This document shows positions 15,677 through 27,529 of a stretch of DNA of 64,000 nt, piece by piece. The notes under the pieces are model-generated. The model ran no database searches, was not told the origin of the DNA, and worked only from the letters and a program-made list of their open reading frames with translations. Numbering within the stretch: the stretch's first letter is position 1; every line of letters begins with the position of its first letter. The position numbers were made by a program, and so were the translations under genes. Where the stretch lies: the IMG/VR virus record IMGVR_UViG_2654587772_000002; one strand, given 5' to 3'. The stretch is from a virus. Lineage: Duplodnaviria > Heunggongvirae > Uroviricota > Caudoviricetes.

Positions 15677-18600
15677 TTATGCGTATTGTTGGATGACGGC
15701 CAGAACGTCCGCCACGTTGTGTTTTGTCTCGATAATCCACCAGTTACCCGGGAAATCGCTGTTCTTCGCCTTCGCTGGCAGCCAGCGAGCGCCGAATTTC
15801 GCCTTGATTGCGTCTTTCGCACGGAAAAGAACGCCTTTCATGCCTGAGGCTTCCTGAAGCCCAAATACCTCGCCAGCGGCGAATTTTGGTGCGTACATCA
15901 TCTTCAGGTCGGCGGTGGATACGCGATAATTCAGACCTAGAGACTGAGCTATGCTGGTGGCATCACCCTGTATTGATGATAACTCTTCTTGTTTCTCGTT
16001 TCTGGCGGCAATCTCTTCCTCCGTGATGTTGCCAAGGGCCAGGTTTATCCGATCAGCGTCGGCCTGTTTCTCTTCATCGGTGCGCCCGGCAAGAACCGTG
16101 TTAATTCTCTGCAATATCTCCACATGATTCTTGCGCATGCTGAGCAATTCCGGCGTAACCTCGTTAAGATCCACCAGCCCAAGGATGGCAAGGTCGGAAA
16201 ACATTGATACCAGGTTGTAGGTCATGCGATAGCTGAGTTGACCATAGGCTGATGGCAACTTCACCGCATCCATTTGATAGGCATCCATAAATTTAGAGCC
16301 GTCGTTTACGACATCCGCTATTGCAGGTGTGATTTTCCCTGTGGTGGCGGCCTCCCTGATTGCTGTTACCCACGATTGAGTCAGCGCGGCGACTGCATGA
16401 TTCAGATTGGCTTCCCGTTCTGCTGCGATGCGCGCGCTTGCTGCGTCCATTGCCTGCTTGATCTCGGCTTTATTGCTGTAAATGCCAATGGTGCCAAACT
16501 GTGCTGTGGTGATCTCATAATCTGACGCCCGGAACTCATTGGTACCGAAAATGGCATTGGTGACTTCAAGTTCAGAATCCCCGTTACGAGTAGCCCCCTG
16601 GCTTGTTTTTTCCGGCATTCTGGCGATCGCATCCGCTATTTTCTCCTGAATTGCTTCAGGGGATAGCGTATCTCCGTATGACGCGATTACATCGCCATAA
16701 TTGGAGCCAAACAATTCAACCAGGAATGTTTCTGCCGAACGGATCTGGCGGTTATTCCCTTCCGACATCATACCAAGCACCCATTTTGCAATTGACGACT
16801 TCAGCGCGACGTCACGGCGATCCGGGTAAACCGCATGCTTCAGTGGGTCCGTATAGGTACCAACAAAATCAATGCTATAGCCTGACTCTGTAGTCTGAAC
16901 GCCGTATGAGTCAGTGATTTTGATCATGCCGCGCTGCTGGAAACGGTAGAAATCGTCACAGGAAATGATGTCGTTAATCCCGGCGATGGAGACGCCGCCA
17001 CTGATTTTCTGCATAACAGCATCTTCATCGGGAGTTACATCAACCTGTTTATCCAGCGTCTTCACATCCCAGTTACCCGATTTGGTACCTTTGAAGGTAA
17101 AGATAATCTCCACGTCTGCGCGCAGGCTGTCGAAGTCCAGCGACTTAATGCGAACGATATCACCGGCACAATCGTAGTATTGGCCTACACGCCATGAGCG
17201 ATCGCCGATAATAAGGAACTCACTCGCATGGTTAACCAGGTCAGGATCAACATCCAGAATGCCTTTATTTATTGCATCCTCCACCAGCGGGCGCAGGCGT
17301 TTGATATCCGTCGCGGCCTTCTGAGTACGGTTCAATAATTTCTCATAGCGGGAGATGGCTTGAGAGATATTAGCCTTGCGCTGAATGGCGCTTTTCAACG
17401 ACGCGCGATACTGTGCTAACAACGTACGGTCTGTGTGATGGACGCTACCCCAGCGGGCTTTCCAGTCTGCGTTATCAGCTGCTTTGGCCATTACCGCCTG
17501 TTTGAATTTGGCGACGTCGGCGGTGGTCTTTTCAAGTTCCGCTTTGCTTCGCTCTAATTCAGCGGTAAGCACCTCCACATCCTCACCAGCTGCGTGCTGC
17601 GCCTTGATGTAGTTCTGAAGGTCGATAGTAGCCTGTTCTTTCTGGCGAGCGCGTTGCGCGGCTTTCGCCTTATCCATTTGAACCTGCATCATTGCCAGAC
17701 GTTCGCCATCATCCTTAGCGGTATACATCTGCATTTCGATCATATCGTTGGCGTCGGCGTTCTCCATTTCTGACTTATCTGAACGGAGGATATCGGAGAT
17801 CCAACCTGCTTTACGCTTCAGCGTCTTCAGTCGGTATTCATCGAAAGAACCCTTGCCGCAGTAGTAGTGAACGCGAACGCTTGCACGGTTGGAACCAACT
17901 CGGGCACCGCGACCGTTACGCTGTGCGATACTGGCTGGTGTCCATGGCAACGTCAGATGATGGATGTCAGTCGTTCCTCGATGCAGGTTGATACCCACCT
18001 CTGCCTTTTTGTTGCAGATGATGATCGGAGTCCGGCCCTCCTGGAAGTCGGCTGCAATCTTTTCCAGACCGCCCAACGACATTTCATTTTGCTGCGCGAT
18101 ATAGGCGTCATACAGAGCTATTTGCTCGTTGTATTTCGCTATCTGTGCATCTGTTGGTTCATCCGGTAACTCTTTCGGCGGTTTAACCGCTTTCAGTTTC
18201 TTACCGGTTTTACCTGCCTCGGCAACCGTCTGAGCATTCAGGATCCCCACCTTTGAAGGTTCAAGGTTAAGAGCATTGCAGATAATGCGCTTGAGCTTCT
18301 GGTGTTGCGTTTTTTCATCGGTGAAGATGATTTGCTTACCTTCTGGGAAAAACTCCTTCAGCGTGGCAATCAGCTTCGCGTATTTGGGCGTAACGGGGTG
18401 AGTTACGGTCTGTTCGTCAATGCCAAACTTGGCCAGGCGCTTATTCACTTCCTGCTCAAATGCTTCCGGTACCTGCAACTGAATAAACTCGCCCTTATCT
18501 ATCAGGGAGTATTGCGATTGCTGCGTGATTGAATCATCACTGTCGTCGTCTTCGCTGGTGGCTTGTTTGGGCAAACTGTCCGCCAGCTGCTGCACCGCAT

Positions 18601-21600
18601 CGGCGTACTCCGGCAGGAAACGATAGGTGATCCGGCGATAGTACAGGTCCATGTCAGTACATACGCGGTCCATATCCCTGATTATTGAGAAGATCGGACG
18701 GGCTTTCTCGTGCTCAATCACGCCGTCTTCATTGACCGAGGTCATTACGCCATTGTTGGCTTTGGCCGCCGCTTCCGCCTGCTGACGCAATTCTTCATAC
18801 GCCGCCAGTTGTTCTTCAGTAAGTGGTGCATCCTGCTGGTGTTCGTCCAGCTCCGGGATCTCCACGGTATCCTTAACGTCTTCCGCCGTTTTAAGCGTTA
18901 CCCAGCGATGGAATATACCGCGCAGCGCATCAAGGTTTTCAAAGCCCACCAGCGCCATTTTTTCTTCAACTTCACCGCTGATTTTCTGTACCGTTTCCAG
19001 CCTGGTCTTGCCGAAGAATTTAACGAAGTCATCAGGACCGTAGATCCCCATCTTCTGCCAGTATTCCTTCGGCAGAACATGAGAAAGCATGTTGTATGCA
19101 TCGATCGGGGTGTTAACGACTGGCGTTGCAGTCAGGAGAACCGGCCCGCGCCCGCCATTCTTTTTCATCAGGTACGCGTTTTTAATTGCCATATCTCGCG
19201 CCGATTGCGCCACCGCGCTGGTGGGCAGATAGGCCAGCTGTGACGCTTCGCGACCATTTTTATAGCTATTGCGGTAGTTGTGGCCTTCGTCAGCAATCAC
19301 GCTGTCGAAGCCCATATCCTCAAAGTACGGATACTTCTCTGCTTTTTCGGTACCGGTATCTGAATACTCCGACAATACCCGGCGACGCGCCGCCTCTTTG
19401 CGATGGGAATCGGAGTCCATTGCGCTGGCCACACGCCTGGCAGCAACGAAGTCATAAAGCATGTCTTGTGCATGCTCATCTACGGTGTCATCACGTAGCG
19501 GAATGCGGGCGTATTGTTCTTTGGTAAACACGACTGCACGGTAGTTTGAGTGCGGGATCGCGTTCATCCGCGCCGTGATAGTGGCTTCATCTGCCAGTTT
19601 AAGGGCATCGCGCATAACGGGAGTGCCATCTGCACCAACGACAGGTTTACCGTTCTCATCGAGCACCGGCACCTGGCGAATCTGATCGCCATCCATCAGC
19701 ACATCAAGACCGACGAACAGGTAGTTACTGAATGCCTCTTCACTCAGGAACTCTTTTGCTTCGTAATACCAGTTTTCCAGCACTGCTTTAGGCACTACAT
19801 AAGCAGTACGGGTGGAGCGACCGTTCTCATAGTTGAACGCCTCAAGCGCCAGCGCGGTCGTCGTTTTACCCAGCCCGGTGCCGAAGCCCAGGATGCCGCG
19901 CCCATCTTCGGACAGTCGGCGCACCTCGCTATTCTGGTAATCAAATGGCTGGCGCTTACCGCTTAATCCCTTCAACCCAAGCGGATCGCCAGAGTGTTCA
20001 TACGGGATATTGCTATTGAACACATCGTTGTATTTGGCAACCAACTCATCGTAGCGATCGTGCGTCTTGATCCACTTATTGAACTGGTCCTCAAGCAGTG
20101 CCATCTGCTCGCGGTAGCCGTTCGCCGTCGCGCTATCTTTGCCACCGATACGCGCACCATTGAGATACTTTTCCAGCTGTGCCGGGAACCCGGTCGCGTT
20201 TTCACCTGATTTACGGTCCCACTCGTAGCGGATCTCGCCTGTTTCTTTATCCTTGCGCTGGACGACACCGTATCGGTGCCCTACGAACAGGCCATCACCA
20301 CCGTGATAGGTGTCAGAAACCATTTCGTCGCCTTCCAGCTGCACTGACTGCACATAGCGCAGATCCGGATAGCCGTTTTCCTGCAAAAATTCCAGAATGA
20401 CGGAACGGTCGAACCAACGGCTATTGAGCTTAAACCGGATATTCTCTGCTGGCGTCTTGATGCGCTTCTCTTCGATCGCTGCCAGCTGATTAAGGACGTT
20501 GTTCTTTACTGGACCGTCGGGGAGCGTGGCGAGGAATTCCTGTTTTGGAGCCACTATCTCGTTAATGTCGCCGCTGGTGGCGCGGGCAAACGGAACAATC
20601 CCGCCATACGGTGAAACCGCAATACCAGGGGTGCTGGCCAATAAATTAAGCAACTCGTCATCACTGGCTGGCAGTTCGCCGGTAAACGCAAGGCGGAAAT
20701 CATCGAGCTGGATTGGATCGCGGGTAAGATCGCTATAGAGATAACGCAGGGTGTCCTGATAGCTGTTGGAGTCATAACTGGCGCTGGAGTCATGCGTAAC
20801 CAGCTTTCCTGTCAGCTCGTCTGAAATAGAGCCATCCAGCTTAATCGCACCACGGAAAGCAAACCAGGCGCGCGCACCGCTCCCCGACAATTTCGCTATA
20901 GGACCGCGACCAGGATTACCAAAGCGGTCAATCTCTGCCTGCAAACGGGATACCAGAGAAAGGCGCTGCTGTTCGATTTGTTCAGCACTATGCCCGGCGG
21001 CCTTCATATCCTGATATTCAATTAACATCCGGCCAATCATCGCCCCGCGATACAAGCGTTCACGGTATTTTTCAGGCTGGCTGTTAATCCAGTCCACCAG
21101 CTGCACCATATCGTCGCTGATTGATGTGGTGTACTTATCGCGGACATTTGCCATCTGGGTAAATGTCATGCCGAGACGGCCTTCTGTTGTAGTCAGGTTA
21201 CGCTGAAGAGCCTCCCAGCTATCCGCGCCATAACTGGCAGCATCGATCTTAAGTTCCTTCCCGGCATCAGCTTCAATCCAGCGACCACCAGCATATTTTT
21301 GCCATACGCCATTAATCAGGCGCATTTCCCCTTCACCAACAACGTCTGCGGTCGGTGACGGTTCAGCCATATCGAGCAAAGACCAGTCGATACGGCTTTC
21401 GAAACGATGAATCAGCTTCGCTTTAAGAGCCTGGTTATCAATCTGACCGTCGGCACGAACCTCAATACGCCCCTGGAAGCCCTTTTCCTGGGTGCCATGA
21501 ACAAACCGGCGGCCATCCTTTTCAAACCACTTGCCAGAAATAAACGTTGGCCAAAGCACATTTGCCGATTCAAGAGTGCTTTCATCCACCAGGGGGATTT

Positions 21601-22444
21601 TCTCAGCCATCTCTGCCGGATGTTTGCGCATCAGCACCACATCAACGACTGTACTGGTCCCGTTTGCGTCAAAAGTACCGGTAGGCAAGCGGTGAGCGCC
21701 AAGAAATTCAGCTTTACGGGATAAGCGCAGGCGTAACCGCTTCATGTTTGAACCTGAAACAATGGACGGCGGCACAATCACGCACATGAATCCGCCTGGC
21801 TTTATCTTGTCCAGCATGCGGAGCATGAAGTAAGAACCCATGTCCGTTTCTTCTGCGTAAGGCTTATCGATGTTGCGTGTGTTATCACGACCGCCGAACG
21901 GAACGTTACCCACAACATGGTCGAATGAATCGTTAGGCGTGCTTATAGCCAGCTGTTCGAACGGGGAAATCTGTACGCTGTCTTCCGGGTGTAACAACTG
22001 GTTTATACGACCGGAAACACTGCTGATCTCAGTCGCGGTCATCACCGTACCAACCGGTTTTGTCTCATTAAAAACGCCGGTTCCCGCCGATGGTTCCAGA
22101 GTGTTACCTACGTCCGCGCCGTAGAGCTTCATGATCTCCCAGACACCTTCAGCGATCGGCTTTGGTGTGTAATATTCGGAGACGGACCCGCCAATGCCGC
22201 CTTCACCGGTGTACCCAGCCAGGATCTGGCGCTGTTCATCTGTCAGTGTCGCGCCGTCCACCAGCGAATTAAGCAAATCTATCGCCTTCTGATTCGCCTC
22301 CCGGCGCAGTCGGTCATAGCTTTTGCCTTCCACCTTTTCCACGCCGTATTTAATCGGCGCTCGGTGAGATGTTATTGCCCTAATGTATTTCAATATTTCG
22401 CTGACACTTGAACAGCAAAACACCCCCATAAATAGCTTGTTCAT
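15677..22444 (-). CDS. darB: DarB antirestriction protein (2255 aa; N6-adenine methyltransferase-like + DExH helicase domains)
   Basis: Exactly 2255 aa; NVPFGG methyltransferase-like motif, DEGHNYRN helicase motif II. Confidence 0.85.
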   Translation of the reverse strand: MNKLFMGVFCCSSVSEILKYIRAITSHRAPIKYGVEKVEGKSYDRLRREANQKAIDLLNSLVDGATLTDEQRQILAGYTGEGGIGGSVSEYYTPKPIAEGVWEIMKLYGADVGNTLEPSAGTGVFNETKPVGTVMTATEISSVSGRINQLLHPEDSVQISPFEQLAISTPNDSFDHVVGNVPFGGRDNTRNIDKPYAEETDMGSYFMLRMLDKIKPGGFMCVIVPPSIVSGSNMKRLRLRLSRKAEFLGAHRLPTGTFDANGTSTVVDVVLMRKHPAEMAEKIPLVDESTLESANVLWPTFISGKWFEKDGRRFVHGTQEKGFQGRIEVRADGQIDNQALKAKLIHRFESRIDWSLLDMAEPSPTADVVGEGEMRLINGVWQKYAGGRWIEADAGKELKIDAASYGADSWEALQRNLTTTEGRLGMTFTQMANVRDKYTTSISDDMVQLVDWINSQPEKYRERLYRGAMIGRMLIEYQDMKAAGHSAEQIEQQRLSLVSRLQAEIDRFGNPGRGPIAKLSGSGARAWFAFRGAIKLDGSISDELTGKLVTHDSSASYDSNSYQDTLRYLYSDLTRDPIQLDDFRLAFTGELPASDDELLNLLASTPGIAVSPYGGIVPFARATSGDINEIVAPKQEFLATLPDGPVKNNVLNQLAAIEEKRIKTPAENIRFKLNSRWFDRSVILEFLQENGYPDLRYVQSVQLEGDEMVSDTYHGGDGLFVGHRYGVVQRKDKETGEIRYEWDRKSGENATGFPAQLEKYLNGARIGGKDSATANGYREQMALLEDQFNKWIKTHDRYDELVAKYNDVFNSNIPYEHSGDPLGLKGLSGKRQPFDYQNSEVRRLSEDGRGILGFGTGLGKTTTALALEAFNYENGRSTRTAYVVPKAVLENWYYEAKEFLSEEAFSNYLFVGLDVLMDGDQIRQVPVLDENGKPVVGADGTPVMRDALKLADEATITARMNAIPHSNYRAVVFTKEQYARIPLRDDTVDEHAQDMLYDFVAARRVASAMDSDSHRKEAARRRVLSEYSDTGTEKAEKYPYFEDMGFDSVIADEGHNYRNSYKNGREASQLAYLPTSAVAQSARDMAIKNAYLMKKNGGRGPVLLTATPVVNTPIDAYNMLSHVLPKEYWQKMGIYGPDDFVKFFGKTRLETVQKISGEVEEKMALVGFENLDALRGIFHRWVTLKTAEDVKDTVEIPELDEHQQDAPLTEEQLAAYEELRQQAEAAAKANNGVMTSVNEDGVIEHEKARPIFSIIRDMDRVCTDMDLYYRRITYRFLPEYADAVQQLADSLPKQATSEDDDSDDSITQQSQYSLIDKGEFIQLQVPEAFEQEVNKRLAKFGIDEQTVTHPVTPKYAKLIATLKEFFPEGKQIIFTDEKTQHQKLKRIICNALNLEPSKVGILNAQTVAEAGKTGKKLKAVKPPKELPDEPTDAQIAKYNEQIALYDAYIAQQNEMSLGGLEKIAADFQEGRTPIIICNKKAEVGINLHRGTTDIHHLTLPWTPASIAQRNGRGARVGSNRASVRVHYYCGKGSFDEYRLKTLKRKAGWISDILRSDKSEMENADANDMIEMQMYTAKDDGERLAMMQVQMDKAKAAQRARQKEQATIDLQNYIKAQHAAGEDVEVLTAELERSKAELEKTTADVAKFKQAVMAKAADNADWKARWGSVHHTDRTLLAQYRASLKSAIQRKANISQAISRYEKLLNRTQKAATDIKRLRPLVEDAINKGILDVDPDLVNHASEFLIIGDRSWRVGQYYDCAGDIVRIKSLDFDSLRADVEIIFTFKGTKSGNWDVKTLDKQVDVTPDEDAVMQKISGGVSIAGINDIISCDDFYRFQQRGMIKITDSYGVQTTESGYSIDFVGTYTDPLKHAVYPDRRDVALKSSIAKWVLGMMSEGNNRQIRSAETFLVELFGSNYGDVIASYGDTLSPEAIQEKIADAIARMPEKTSQGATRNGDSELEVTNAIFGTNEFRASDYEITTAQFGTIGIYSNKAEIKQAMDAASARIAAEREANLNHAVAALTQSWVTAIREAATTGKITPAIADVVNDGSKFMDAYQMDAVKLPSAYGQLSYRMTYNLVSMFSDLAILGLVDLNEVTPELLSMRKNHVEILQRINTVLAGRTDEEKQADADRINLALGNITEEEIAARNEKQEELSSIQGDATSIAQSLGLNYRVSTADLKMMYAPKFAAGEVFGLQEASGMKGVLFRAKDAIKAKFGARWLPAKAKNSDFPGNWWIIETKHNVADVLAVIQQYA

Positions 22445-22510: not shown

Positions 22511-24241
<1,731 letters not shown>

Positions 24242-25516
24242 ACGGCAAACATTCCCAATTCACAGAGTCCGACCTAAACCACATGAAGCGGCTTAGGAAT
24301 TACAGACTCTCCAAGGGCTAACACTGCCAGCCCGGCAGCTTTTATATTACGGGCCGCGTTAATATCACGATCATGCTCTGCGCCACATTCCGGGCAGTGC
24401 CATTTACGAATATTAAGAGGCATTTTTTGCATGGTGAAGCCGCAACTGCTGCAACGTTTGGAAGAAGGGAAATACTGGTCGATAGCGACAATGCTACGTC
24501 CACCCCATTCTCCTTTGTACTGGAGTTGGCGTACAAGTTCGCTCCAGCCTGCGTCAGCTATTGCTTTAGACAGCTTCGGGTTACGGATCATGTTTTTCAC
24601 TTTAAGGGATTCGACGCAAACAACTTGGTTTTCGTTAATCAGTTTGCGGGACAACTTATGCAGGTTATCCATCCGACAATCGACTATTCTCGCGTGGAGG
24701 CGGGCAACCTTTAAACGTGCTTTGGCGCGGTTCTTTGAGCCTTTTTGTTTCTTGCTCAATCTGCGCTGTAACACTGCTAATCGCTTCGCGTATTTAGCGT
24801 TGTGTCGAGGATTGCCAGTTTTAAAACCGGTATCGGTGACGAACAAATCTTTTAAACCAATATCAATGCCGACCGTGGAAACGGTGATCGGCAGTGATAC
24901 AGGCTCAAACTCGCAGAGACAGGATACAAAATATCGTCCGGCAGCATCCCTGGTGATAGTGACAGTGGATGGAGCAGACGGCAACGGACGGCTCCAGCGA
25001 ACATCTAACGGCTCTTTGCTCTTTGCCATGTACAGCTTGCCGTCACGGTATTTAAATGCGCTGGCAGTTAGTTCTGCGGCCTGTTTATGCCGCTTGCTCT
25101 TAAAAACTGGGTATGCAGCACGCCCGGCGAAAAAGTTAGCAAAAGCCGTTTGTTGGTGGCGCAGAGACTGCTGGAGGGGGACGCAGGAAACGTCATTCAG
25201 CCAAGCGAATTCTGGTTCTTTTTTCAGTGCCGTTAATTTGGCGCTGGCTTGTGCATAGCCGACCCTCTCATGGCGTGCGTAGTACGCATCGGTGCGCCAG
25301 CGAAGGAGGCTGTTATAGACAAAACGCACACACCCAAAAGTCCGGGCTAATAGCTCGGTTTGTTCGGGAGTTGGATAGAATCGATATTTATAGGCACGCT
25401 TCATGTTCTATATAATACATTGAAACTAATGAGTATATAAATGAATACACGGACGAAAATGTTATCAAAGCCAATATACCAACAGACATTAGGTAAGGTA
25501 GCTGGAGGGCAATATA
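24242..25516 (-). mobile_element. IS200/IS605-family tnpB-only element (IS1341-type) inserted between portal and protease genes
   Basis: Intact TnpB ORF fills the intergenic space; no tnpA; boundaries approximate. Confidence 0.55.
24274..25404 (-). CDS. tnpB: TnpB (OrfB) RNA-guided endonuclease-like transposase accessory protein (376 aa)
   Basis: N-terminal MKRAYKYRFYPTPEQ, RuvC-like core and C-terminal zinc finger CSSCG...CPECG. Confidence 0.85.
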   Translation of the reverse strand: MKRAYKYRFYPTPEQTELLARTFGCVRFVYNSLLRWRTDAYYARHERVGYAQASAKLTALKKEPEFAWLNDVSCVPLQQSLRHQQTAFANFFAGRAAYPVFKSKRHKQAAELTASAFKYRDGKLYMAKSKEPLDVRWSRPLPSAPSTVTITRDAAGRYFVSCLCEFEPVSLPITVSTVGIDIGLKDLFVTDTGFKTGNPRHNAKYAKRLAVLQRRLSKKQKGSKNRAKARLKVARLHARIVDCRMDNLHKLSRKLINENQVVCVESLKVKNMIRNPKLSKAIADAGWSELVRQLQYKGEWGGRSIVAIDQYFPSSKRCSSCGFTMQKMPLNIRKWHCPECGAEHDRDINAARNIKAAGLAVLALGESVIPKPLHVV

Positions 25517-26536
25517 ATGACTGATGTTTTGAAAACGGTCACTGACCGCTTTTGTCTCTATAGCAATGCTCGAAAAGGTCGCCAGAACGGGCGACAGTAT
25601 GTATTAAGCGCGGTTAAGACCATGCTTGAAAGCAAGGAAACTCAGGAAGGTTTACGCCTTGGAGAGCTTTTCGGCTATTACGGTCACGGTCGCCGACAGC
25701 TGACCGGCAAACTGGAAGTACCAGAAACCAGCGTAATCATGGTGGAAGGTCGCCCGGTCGTAATCGACAATGTTCCAGCGTGCCGCACAGTGGCTATATC
25801 CGTTGACGACAACGGCATCGTTACCCATACACAGGAAATTCTTAACACAGAGCCGGGTAAAATTGTCGCCGCGATGATCGAAAGCCGAGCTGGTGGCTGG
25901 AGCTGGGCCACTGGCGGGCGTGAGTCCGGGAAAATCGCTGTAACCACCAGCTTCCATGGTGTGGATTATGTGACAACGCCGAACTATATCAGTCTGGATC
26001 ATCCTGCCAGCGCCGGAATGTTTGAAAGCGCGGATTCTAAATCTTTACTGGCAGAGTCCCTGGCGGCGCATGGGTACTCCGACGAGTCAGTGCAGGCCGT
26101 TATATCCCATTACGGCAAAATGGCTGAACTGGAAATGATGGTGGAGGCGACAGAGCGTACGGCAGAACTGGAAACTGCACTACTCGAAAGCCAGGGCCGC
26201 CACCTCGAAGCAATGGCCAAGATCGCAGATGCTGAAGCGCGAATCGCTTTGCTGGAGGAAACAGCGGGTATCCGCGACGATGTGCTGGCAGCAATGCAAG
26301 ACGAACTGGATAACCTCCCGATCTTCGTCTCCGCCGCCCAAAAAGACGCATTCCGCCTCAAAGAACCTGGTGATGCAAAAATCGTTGCCACACTTTTCGA
26401 ATCTCTGATCAAAGTTGGCGCACGCAACTTGCCTGTCACCAAGAAAATTAAGGAGGTTCCGCAAGCGGCTAACGTCCAGGCACCGCGTGAGACAAGCATC
26501 ATCACGTTTAATAATTCAATCAATCCGTTTAAATAA
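25517..26536 (+). CDS. Head processing protease Pro-like (339 aa)
   Basis: Synteny with P1 pro. Confidence 0.5.
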   Translation: MTDVLKTVTDRFCLYSNARKGRQNGRQYVLSAVKTMLESKETQEGLRLGELFGYYGHGRRQLTGKLEVPETSVIMVEGRPVVIDNVPACRTVAISVDDNGIVTHTQEILNTEPGKIVAAMIESRAGGWSWATGGRESGKIAVTTSFHGVDYVTTPNYISLDHPASAGMFESADSKSLLAESLAAHGYSDESVQAVISHYGKMAELEMMVEATERTAELETALLESQGRHLEAMAKIADAEARIALLEETAGIRDDVLAAMQDELDNLPIFVSAAQKDAFRLKEPGDAKIVATLFESLIKVGARNLPVTKKIKEVPQAANVQAPRETSIITFNNSINPFK

Positions 26537-27512: not shown

Positions 27513-27529
27513 ATTGCTCTAATTAATTT
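27513..27529 (+). promoter_or_regulatory. C1 operator (ATTGCTCTAATTAATTT) upstream of ssb
   Basis: Consensus match 20 nt upstream of ssb start. Confidence 0.55.

Follow-up and report, generated by a model that had tools for sequence, protein, structure and literature searches.

A tnpB-only insertion of the IS200/IS605 type lies between the portal gene prt and the head-processing gene pro of a P1-like phage. It is best explained, on the sequence evidence set out below, as an element that probably acts in RNA-guided homing or competition among P1-like phages. The type of element is already known; its setting in a P1-like phage is new. The window analysed was a 64,000-nucleotide stretch of IMG/VR record IMGVR_UViG_2654587772_000002, which an earlier note had interpreted as carrying a solo IS1341-type TnpB insertion. 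That interpretation is supported, and the tests proposed for it all came out in its favour. Coordinates are collected in Table 1.

Table 1. Features of the insertion and its surroundings; positions are those of the window.
Feature	Position	Strand	Basis
Whole element, tnpB-only IS200/IS605 (IS1341-type), relative of ISEc42	24222..25516	-	P1 collinearity break
tnpB, 376 aa, intact RNA-guided nuclease gene	24274..25404	-	ORF, profiles, catalytic residues
Left end (LE), 112 nt, homologous to LEs of relatives, TnpA-type hairpin decayed	25405..25516	-	folding, alignment
Right end (RE), 52 nt past tnpB stop, ending ...GTCAA, with hairpin at 24230-24251	24222..24273	-	comparison with relatives
Predicted omega/reRNA scaffold; core 24222-24339, extra coding-region helix may extend to 24414	24222..24414	-	RNAalifold covariation
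Flank predicted as guide, 5'-UAUCGUUUCCCUCUUUAAAG, in prt 3' end	24202..24221	-	position directly 3' of RE end
ATGA (pro start codon plus A), TCAT on element strand; insertion target and presumed TAM	25517..25520	+	
GGAGGG Shine-Dalgarno from LE terminus, 7 nt before pro ATG	25504..25509	+	read from sequence
Promoter-like site (TTTATA-18-TATTAT) upstream of tnpB in LE	25412..25441	-	consensus scan; site count no more than chance
prt (portal), C-terminus rewritten from ...GNDND-stop to ...GNDIDNCPP-stop	22520..24241	+	ORF and P1 comparison
pro (head processing), coding sequence unaltered	25517..26536	+	ORF and P1 comparison

Collinearity with P1 (AF234172) breaks so as to delimit 1,295 bp of inserted DNA, with a 3-nt ambiguity (ATA), and both boundaries match the points where likeness among four relatives ends. 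Of the span 24242-25516 given in the earlier note, the 25516 end was confirmed whilst the other end moved to 24222, and the prt ORF closes with 20 nt of element DNA (24222-24241). In uninterrupted P1 the prt and pro genes overlap by 8 nt and the element splits that overlap. TnpB was right to be described as fitting precisely between the two genes, but it fills no native intergenic space. The fit is precise because the element family habitually inserts immediately 5' of a start codon. Comparison of the empty P1 site with the filled site places the insertion 3' of TCAT, the complement of the ATGA of pro, without target duplication; TCAT occurs once in the empty P1 site. The ends are of the IS200/IS605 type: inverted repeats and a target duplication are lacking, and the TCAT flank is conserved. 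The element appears to have inserted once, on the strand opposite the phage late genes, 3' of TCAT in the P1 prt/pro overlap.

The identical insertion was found in phage vB_EcoM-673R5 and in about 25 of some 460 P1-like plasmids in PLSDB (approximately 5%), always at this single site. The empty site could also be located, with uninterrupted prt and pro in P1, P7, SJ46, RCS47 and about 440 PLSDB plasmids; tnpB is therefore an insertion polymorphism and not a core gene. Status as a conserved core gene of P1 was rejected, the gene being absent from about 95% of P1-like plasmids and from all classical P1/P7 genomes. Carriers reside in E. coli, E. albertii and E. fergusonii, and their backbones differ in neighbouring genes. 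Among 5,426 E. coli genomes, copies at least 99% identical were all single-copy, and each lay on a plasmid of about 95-100 kb. In a search covering one genome for each of 185,579 species plus IMG/VR, the best protein match beyond the P1-like genomes was 86-87% identical.

The TnpB protein scored above the Pfam cut-offs for OrfB_IS605, Cas12f1-like_TNB and HTH_OrfB_IS605. It reached 357.9 bits on the NCBIfam guided_TnpB model (cut-off 100) and 393.7 on the narrower NCBIfam IS200_TnpB 'exception' model, under that model's cut-off of 425. The RefSeq label for the gene is already TnpB. Residues 3-365 match the ISDra2 TnpB structures 8exa and 8h1j (E=7e-77), a full-length homology in which catalytic and zinc-binding residues are identical. 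The RuvC triad D181/E265/D347 aligns to ISDra2 D191/E278/D361 with no mutation, and the CxxC...CxxC zinc finger is complete (C318/C321/C337/C340), bearing out the reading of an intact 376-aa TnpB with a RuvC core and C-terminal zinc finger. Against relatives, dN/dS of tnpB was 0.07-0.12 and, by this comparison, the gene is under purifying selection. Polymorphism within the P1-borne copies amounted by hand count to approximately 12 synonymous and 11 non-synonymous changes, a dN/dS near 0.3 and so less constraint than the comparisons with relatives indicate. The ORF was intact with all catalytic residues in 9 of 11 sampled copies. The remaining two, in vB_EcoM-673R5 and IMG/VR copy L138, carry indels, the latter of +2 nt; the vB_EcoM-673R5 frameshift is probably a sequencing error.

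These residues also bear on whether the protein could be a domesticated, nuclease-dead TnpB of the TldR kind, repressing phage or host genes under RNA guidance. Exapted TnpBs are known in Enterobacteria (PMC10705468), and the P1-borne element is single-copy and probably immobilised. However, neither the triad nor the zinc finger is damaged, the C-terminus reaches the full length seen in ISDra2, and the predicted RNA ends at the canonical right end with a guide taken from the flank. Such domestication is extremely unlikely and was rejected on the intact catalytic residues.

In ISDra2 the 3' part of tnpB and the right end together encode the guide RNA, whose guide segment comes from the flanking DNA. 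A corresponding structured RNA is predicted from the 3' 120-190 nt of the P1-borne element. Among 42 relatives, RNAalifold found compensatory changes in 26 of the 48 scaffold pairs; 95.4% of scaffold cells were paired, versus 35-45% with slid partners, and none of 500 shuffles reached the observed values. The P1-borne copy retains 46 of the 48 pairs, and the right-end hairpin shows compensatory changes specific to its lineage. The earlier prediction of a guide RNA around 24242-24420 was thus correct in placing a structured RNA over the tnpB 3' end and right end. The right end lies instead at 24222, and the predicted guide falls outside the element, at 24221-24202 in prt.

Within the predicted scaffold, a kink-turn-like GGA...UGAA module at 24252-24317 has the architecture of RAGATH-18 (5-bp stem, GGA, 5-bp stem ... 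UGAA). Sub-threshold matches to Rfam RAGATH-18 (RF03064) coincide with this module; the scores are 21.8 bits for the window and 32.4 for the relative L033, against a gathering threshold of 44.9. Searching Rfam with the window at E-values up to 10, and with nine relatives, we found no family that reached its gathering score. Membership of RAGATH-18, a known guide RNA of IS607 TnpBs (PMC11061315), was rejected because the scores fall below 44.9, and the resemblance is architectural. ISDra2 TnpB differs in this respect, the kink-turn module being a feature of the P1-borne scaffold. ISDra2 also has its own tnpA and uses TTGAT, whereas the P1-borne element lacks tnpA and appears to use TCAT.

The two ends of the element have fared differently. 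Judged by folding and alignment, the left end has lost its hairpin: its DNA folds at -1.2 kcal/mol (z +0.8), versus -9 to -10 in relatives, and it is 66-68% identical to the left ends of two relatives (L009 and L133) but lacks their 3' hairpin arm. The LE hairpin is present in relatives. The right-end hairpin is retained with compensatory changes (helix 10; DNA fold -4.7 kcal/mol). Since the left end decayed while the RNA scaffold was kept, the decay is selective. The 112-nt LE passes straight into tnpB, leaving no tnpA inside the element. No Y1 transposase was found in or adjoining it, and tblastn of the 64-kb window with IS200C TnpA, taken from a sibling plasmid, returned nothing, a search that a very divergent Y1 transposase could escape. 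The reported absence of TnpA was in this way borne out. With its LE hairpin decayed and TnpA absent, the copy is probably immobile: TnpA can probably no longer excise or transpose it, and it is probably IS200/IS605-derived without being a functional member of the family any longer.

A rival reading is an ordinary, still-mobile IS1341-type IS that reached P1 with TnpA supplied in trans by the host, could excise and move again, and uses TnpB only for donor-site retention. The insertion does show the canonical IS200/IS605 signature, the right-end hairpin persists, and IS200-type TnpA genes occur in E. coli genomes, even on the sibling plasmid. The family is also clearly mobile elsewhere: Serratia proteamaculans CBSDS_009 and Klebsiella sp. 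MISC125 have several copies in different places. Against this, the LE hairpin required by Y1 transposases is lost, TnpA is absent from the window, and IS200C TnpA appears to belong to a different subgroup with different ends. Whilst relatives are multi-copy in Serratia and Klebsiella, the P1-borne lineage occupied one site in all collections searched, with no second copy in the 5,426 E. coli genomes or elsewhere. Continued mobility of this copy is therefore unlikely.

Regulatory signals were also scanned. In the promoter and terminator scan, terminator-like sites were enriched on the plus strand. Allowing up to 3 mismatches to the P1 C1-operator consensus, eight operators were found in the window, none of them inside the element; there is therefore no sign of C1 control over tnpB.

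The predicted guide points to a specific target. TCAT together with flank 24221-24202 rebuilds the empty P1 site exactly. With TAM and guide length deduced from position only, the TAM and 20-nt target were perfect in 6 of 7 sampled non-carriers and in 312 non-carrier PLSDB plasmids. Another 121, roughly a quarter of the approximately 433 empty sites, have a seed-position variant, A-to-C at TAM-proximal target position 2. TnpB with an RNA guided by the prt flank would recognise TCAT followed by TATCGTTTCCCTCTTT..., and the predicted target, TCAT-TATCGTTTCCCTCTTTAAAG, would be the empty prt/pro junction, a sequence confined to P1-like genomes that lack the insertion. When a carrier meets a non-carrier in one cell, by superinfection or with a resident prophage-plasmid, the empty site would be cut. 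The break would then either destroy the competitor or, when repaired from the carrier, copy the element in, and the net effect would be an RNA-guided homing endonuclease or gene drive carried by a phage. It is established that TnpB can act as a homing-type nuclease against donor sites left empty (10.1101/2023.03.14.532601).

A single site that is either occupied or empty, the empty allele keeping the predicted target of the nuclease intact, is the pattern of phage homing endonuclease elements. The free-standing seg and mob genes of T-even phages are likewise nuclease genes wedged between conserved essential genes and polymorphic among close relatives; their target is the allele without the nuclease gene, and spread by break repair is expected in mixed infections. 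They differ in that the target of the P1-borne element would be set by a flank-copied RNA and not by the protein, and in its transposon origin. By this analogy, homing of the seg/mob type is the most likely way in which the P1-borne element works.

Variation around the insertion was compared between carriers and non-carriers. Flank diversity (pi) was 0.013-0.015, carriers being as diverse as non-carriers, whilst that of the element was 0.005, approximately 2.7 times lower than in its own flanks. Flank haplotypes switch down to 89 nt from the insertion. This pattern is compatible with homing, and general recombination could yield the same. P1-like genomes recombine heavily, and mosaic flanks with low element diversity need no nuclease-driven homing. 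A carrier frequency of about 5% is unlike the expectation for a strong drive.

The same frequency would suit a neutral hitch-hiker, a dead-end insertion tolerated since its left end restores pro translation, with tnpB and its RNA idle and so far undegraded. The decayed left end and the relaxed-looking polymorphism within the P1 copies, including indels in two of them, also fit such an insertion, as does its presence in an isolated phage, vB_EcoM-673R5, whose tnpB record reads frameshifted. An idle element would not, however, be expected to keep nine of eleven sampled ORFs intact with every catalytic residue, nor a scaffold with nearly all its pairs and lineage-specific compensation in the RE hairpin, nor to be so much less diverse than its flanks while sitting on differing flank haplotypes. 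We consider neutrality rather doubtful, and homing or competition remains the preferred reading.

The insertion also altered the translation signal of pro. The native Shine-Dalgarno of pro, at approximately 24210-24214, was displaced by 1.3 kb, and pro is predicted from the sequence to be translated now from the element-supplied site. Relatives share this arrangement, with GGAGGCATTCTG followed directly by the ATG. The LE is flanked by TCAT in about 33 independent insertions of the family, and in 27 of 32 independent TCAT-flanked insertions of relatives the element sits exactly at the host start codon, the left end giving a Shine-Dalgarno. Our literature search, of incomplete coverage, found no description of start-codon or Shine-Dalgarno-donating IS200/IS605 elements, and nothing specific on TnpB in P1-like phage-plasmids or on a TCAT TAM.

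The family is a group of tnpB-only IS200/IS605 elements akin to ISEc42 and to gipA of the Salmonella prophage Gifsy-1. ISEc42, between ybhB and bioA of E. coli CFT073, is built to the same plan and size: its LE measures about 108-112 nt, its TnpB 376 aa, and its RE 52 nt with GTCAA at the end. It shares the TCAT flank and RNA scaffold, and its LE abuts the ybhB start codon and carries GGAGG. It is about 81% identical to the P1-borne copy in nucleotides and 86% in protein, is chromosomal and has GC-rich hairpins at both ends, unlike the P1-borne copy with its missing LE hairpin. The gipA element (79.6% nucleotide and 85% protein identity) lies, as here, antisense within the morphogenesis operon of a phage and directly abuts the start codon of the gene that follows, at the Z/U junction, where its RE gives Z a stop codon and its LE gives U a Shine-Dalgarno. 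gipA itself is TnpB-like and has been reported as a virulence factor in Peyer's patches (PMC3627910). Gifsy-1 is, however, an integrated lambdoid prophage with both end hairpins of the element intact, whereas the P1-like genome is a phage-plasmid, and gipA entered an ATGA stop/start overlap whereas the P1 insertion entered one of 8 nt.

A bolder reading, possible but tentative, is that the immobilised TnpB/guide-RNA pair may have turned into a gene drive or competition weapon that needs no transposase and is directed by RNA against the prt/pro junction of P1-like phage-plasmids lacking it, with the position-2 variant as a resistance allele. As part of it, the family may be specialised to start codons in operons, the LE donating a Shine-Dalgarno and the RE a stop at ATGA overlaps, so that essential operons could be colonised without polar damage.

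The known role of TnpB is that of a transposon 'retention' nuclease, and Cas12 descends from it. The P1-borne case addresses what role TnpB has when stranded without a transposase. It is a natural case in the well-studied and genetically tractable P1, combining an intact nuclease and a predicted guide RNA with a decayed left end. The predicted target lies only in competing phages, and many of these already have a candidate resistance allele, so that RNA-guided homing or phage-versus-phage exclusion should be testable by standard P1 genetics. Start-codon insertion with a donated ribosome-binding site would account for the persistence of these elements in essential operons.

The window is a P1-like phage-plasmid in which a 376-aa tnpB ORF lies between prt and pro, on the strand opposite to both. 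The protein matched Pfam HTH_OrfB_IS605, OrfB_IS605 and Cas12f1-like_TNB, scored 357.9 bits against NCBIfam guided_TnpB (cut-off 100) and aligned with the solved ISDra2 TnpB over residues 3-365 (E=7e-77), confirming the intact TnpB that an earlier, sequence-only note had proposed here. Its RuvC catalytic residues, counted along the alignment, are unmutated (D181, E265 and D347, corresponding to ISDra2 D191, E278 and D361) and both zinc-finger CxxC pairs are kept (C318/C321 and C337/C340). The gene already carries a TnpB label in RefSeq. It is near certain that the element derives from a known class, the IS1341-type members of IS200/IS605, and is kin of ISEc42 and gipA.

Features of the prt-pro region and of the inserted element
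Feature	Coordinates	Strand	Basis and remarks
darB	15677-22444	-	gene calls and P1 annotation
prt	22520-24241	+	gene calls and P1 annotation
RE (right end), 52 nt	24273-24222	-	four-copy alignment
tnpB ORF, 376 aa	24274-25404	-	between prt and pro
LE (left end), 112 nt	25516-25405	-	four-copy alignment
pro	25517-26536	+	gene calls and P1 annotation; lydD/lyz and ssb next

The ends were defined by aligning the element, in tnpB orientation, with Gifsy-1 gipA, CFT073 ISEc42 and a Citrobacter plasmid copy. A ...GTCAA terminus and a preceding TCAT are common to the four copies. Walking in from both flanks, identity to P1 was lost after 24221 and regained at 25514-25517, the exact point being ambiguous by 3 nt (ATA). 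The shared ends, TCAT flanks and break with P1 thus fix the boundaries at 24222-25516 (1,295 bp), so that the right edge first placed at 24242 moves to 24222. As is typical of IS200/IS605, comparison of the filled site with the P1 empty site revealed no inverted repeats at the ends and no duplication of the target.

The P1 genes prt and pro share an 8-nt overlap. The final 20 nt of the window's prt ORF are element DNA, and Prt therefore ends in ...GNDIDNCPP in place of ...GNDND. The native SD of pro, a GAGGG within the 3' end of prt, is displaced by 1.3 kb; as read from the sequence, GGAGGG at 25504-25509, the complement of the LE terminus, substitutes for it 7 nt 5' of the pro ATG. Inside the element, a sigma-70-like site (10/12; TTTATA-18-TATAAT; 25387-25416, + strand) faces pro about 100 nt before its ATG, and eight terminator-like hairpins were found on the + strand where 1.6 were expected. 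A scan of the window for the P1 C1 operator consensus gave eight matches (0.24 expected), including 22374-22390 and 27513-27529 (+), upstream of prt and at ssb, and six others; none fell inside the element.

The exact fit between prt and pro reflects a family trait of insertion at start codons. At 27 of 32 independent TCAT-flanked insertions, an ORF of at least 60 codons (up to 776) begins exactly at the ATG complementary to the flanking TCAT. A long ORF preceded, once the empty site was reconstructed, by an in-frame stop at no more than 90 nt occurred at 20/32, against 10% of the remaining ATGA sites of those loci (binomial p ~1e-12); requiring a native SD motif as well gave 14/32 against 3.8%. 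The reconstructed sites have a textbook-like SD-spacer-ATG layout. In nearly all such elements the LE terminus is complementary to GGAGG(C)ATTCTG and so supplies a new SD 7 nt 5' of the ATG (25504-25520 in the window; family loci L006-L133). Eight of 29 empty sites are ATGA stop/start overlaps, where the RE terminus (TTGAC, host strand) restores the upstream TGA stop; among them is Gifsy-1 Z/U, with a synonymous change. A sister group with a TTAT/TTAC flank and a different LE had no such ORFs at the insertion. The pattern may reflect targeting, or it may reflect survival of harmless insertions. No description of this start-codon habit with SD donation was found in the literature searched.

For the predicted guide RNA, 42 distinct family members were aligned over their final 200 nt. 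RNAalifold recovered six helices running from the tnpB 3' end to the RE terminus, with compensatory changes in 26/48 pairs. Standard pairs formed in 95.4% of cells compared with 35-45% for slid partners, and 132 cells were changed on both sides compared with 29-36; 0/500 shuffles reached either value. Covariation extends into the TnpB coding sequence. The window copy keeps 46/48 pairs, and its RE hairpin (GTTTGCC...GGCGGAC) differs from that of relatives (CCCCGTC...GGCGGGG) by compensatory changes. The RNA contains a module (5-bp stem, GGA, 5-bp stem, insert, UGAA) with the architecture of Rfam RAGATH-18, which matched there below threshold both in the window (21.8 bits, 24252-24317, - strand) and in the related locus L033 (32.4 bits). 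Guide RNAs of IS607 TnpBs are RAGATH-18-derived (PMC11061315). The predicted RNA region, 24242-24420, was essentially right, but the scaffold reaches 24222. The putative guide is the prt flank outside the element, 24221-24202, 5'-UAUCGUUUCCCUCUUUAAAG.

The element is an insertion polymorphism and not a core gene. Among phage records it was present in 1/19 P1-like genomes (vB_EcoM-673R5, annotated 'ISEc42'). A 71-nt prt::RE junction probe identified 25 carriers among 467 PLSDB plasmids matching the prt end, whilst 312 had a perfect 34-nt empty site and 121 the same site with a single A-to-C at target position 2. Such common empty sites rule out a conserved P1 core gene, an alternative the earlier note had raised. 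Copies of at least 99% identity numbered 37 among 5,426 complete E. coli genomes and, among the matches listed, were all single-copy on plasmids of ~95-100 kb; the remaining E. coli copies were chromosomal ISEc42, ~81% identical. The best protein outside P1-like genomes was 86-87% identical (one genome for each of 185,579 species, plus IMG/VR). Single-copy plasmid carriage and so distant an outsider indicate a lineage specific to P1-like elements and to one site.

The tnpB gene is under purifying selection, judging from dN/dS values of 0.07-0.12 against nine relatives. Among 11 sampled P1 copies we counted ~12 synonymous and ~11 non-synonymous events (dN/dS ~0.3), and the ORF was intact in 9/11. 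One copy has +2 nt, and the 673R5 record (ON470615.2) is frameshifted by a compensating +1/-1 indel pair; its tnpB, prt and darB are all in fragments, probably through sequencing error rather than biology. The LE is homologous to those of relatives L009 and L133 (66-68% identity), but it has lost its hairpin 3' arm and folds as ssDNA at -1.2 kcal/mol (z +0.8) versus -9 to -10 in relatives. As the earlier note had observed of TnpA, no Y1 transposase lies in the element, and none was detectable in the window. These features, and the occurrence of the lineage at a single site, suggest that TnpA can no longer move this copy. Serratia proteamaculans CBSDS_009 and Klebsiella sp. MISC125 each hold several family copies at different chromosomal sites, all without tnpA, indicating mobilisation in trans there.

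The surrounding region varies among siblings. Plasmid NZ_CP027133.1 (L165), whose TnpB element is 100% identical, has IS200C (Y1 TnpA; L165:8049-8507) between pro and lyz, ~115 bp from the pro stop; it is absent from the window, whose pro-lyz interval is ~711 bp shorter. The non-carrier E. albertii p2RM15116 has a distinct ~402-aa TnpB gene just downstream of pro (L171:4582-5790), so prt-pro-lyz seems to collect several IS200/IS605-type elements. The carrier E. albertii p06-3542 has a KilAC antirepressor and an icd-like gene between pro and lyz (L175:5966-7296). Genes upstream of prt also vary among carriers, two E. albertii plasmids lacking darB. Such differing neighbours around the same insertion indicate mosaic backbones.

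Joined to the RE flank, TCAT by construction gives the uninterrupted prt/pro junction, which is identical in P1, P7, SJ46, RCS47, two more non-carriers and the 312 plasmids. In a carrier, the LE sequence that comes after this TCAT no longer matches the guide from position 4 onwards, so the element would not target itself. TnpB cuts empty donor sites, and the element is restored by recombination (10.1101/2023.03.14.532601). With no excision left, TnpB would meet empty sites only on other P1-like genomes, and its likeliest activity would be to home into insertion-free relatives or to exclude them. We give this homing or competition mechanism a roughly even chance of being correct. Carriers span three Escherichia species and backbones with differing neighbour genes, flank diversity in carriers matches that in non-carriers (pi 0.013-0.015; element pi 0.005) and flank haplotypes diverge as near as 89 nt from the insertion. 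These patterns support homing but are not decisive, as general recombination could account for them all, and carriers being only ~5% of the population speaks against homing or competition. The position-2 variant (TCAT|TCTCG..., as in L178, pERB8a1) makes a D-to-E change in Prt and falls within the predicted TAM-proximal seed. Reading it as a nuclease-resistance allele is speculation; it may simply be a common haplotype.

What is new here is the precise anatomy of the element, its selective decay, in which the LE was lost while nuclease and RNA were kept, its confinement to one site in P1-like phage-plasmids, and the population picture of susceptible versus variant target alleles.
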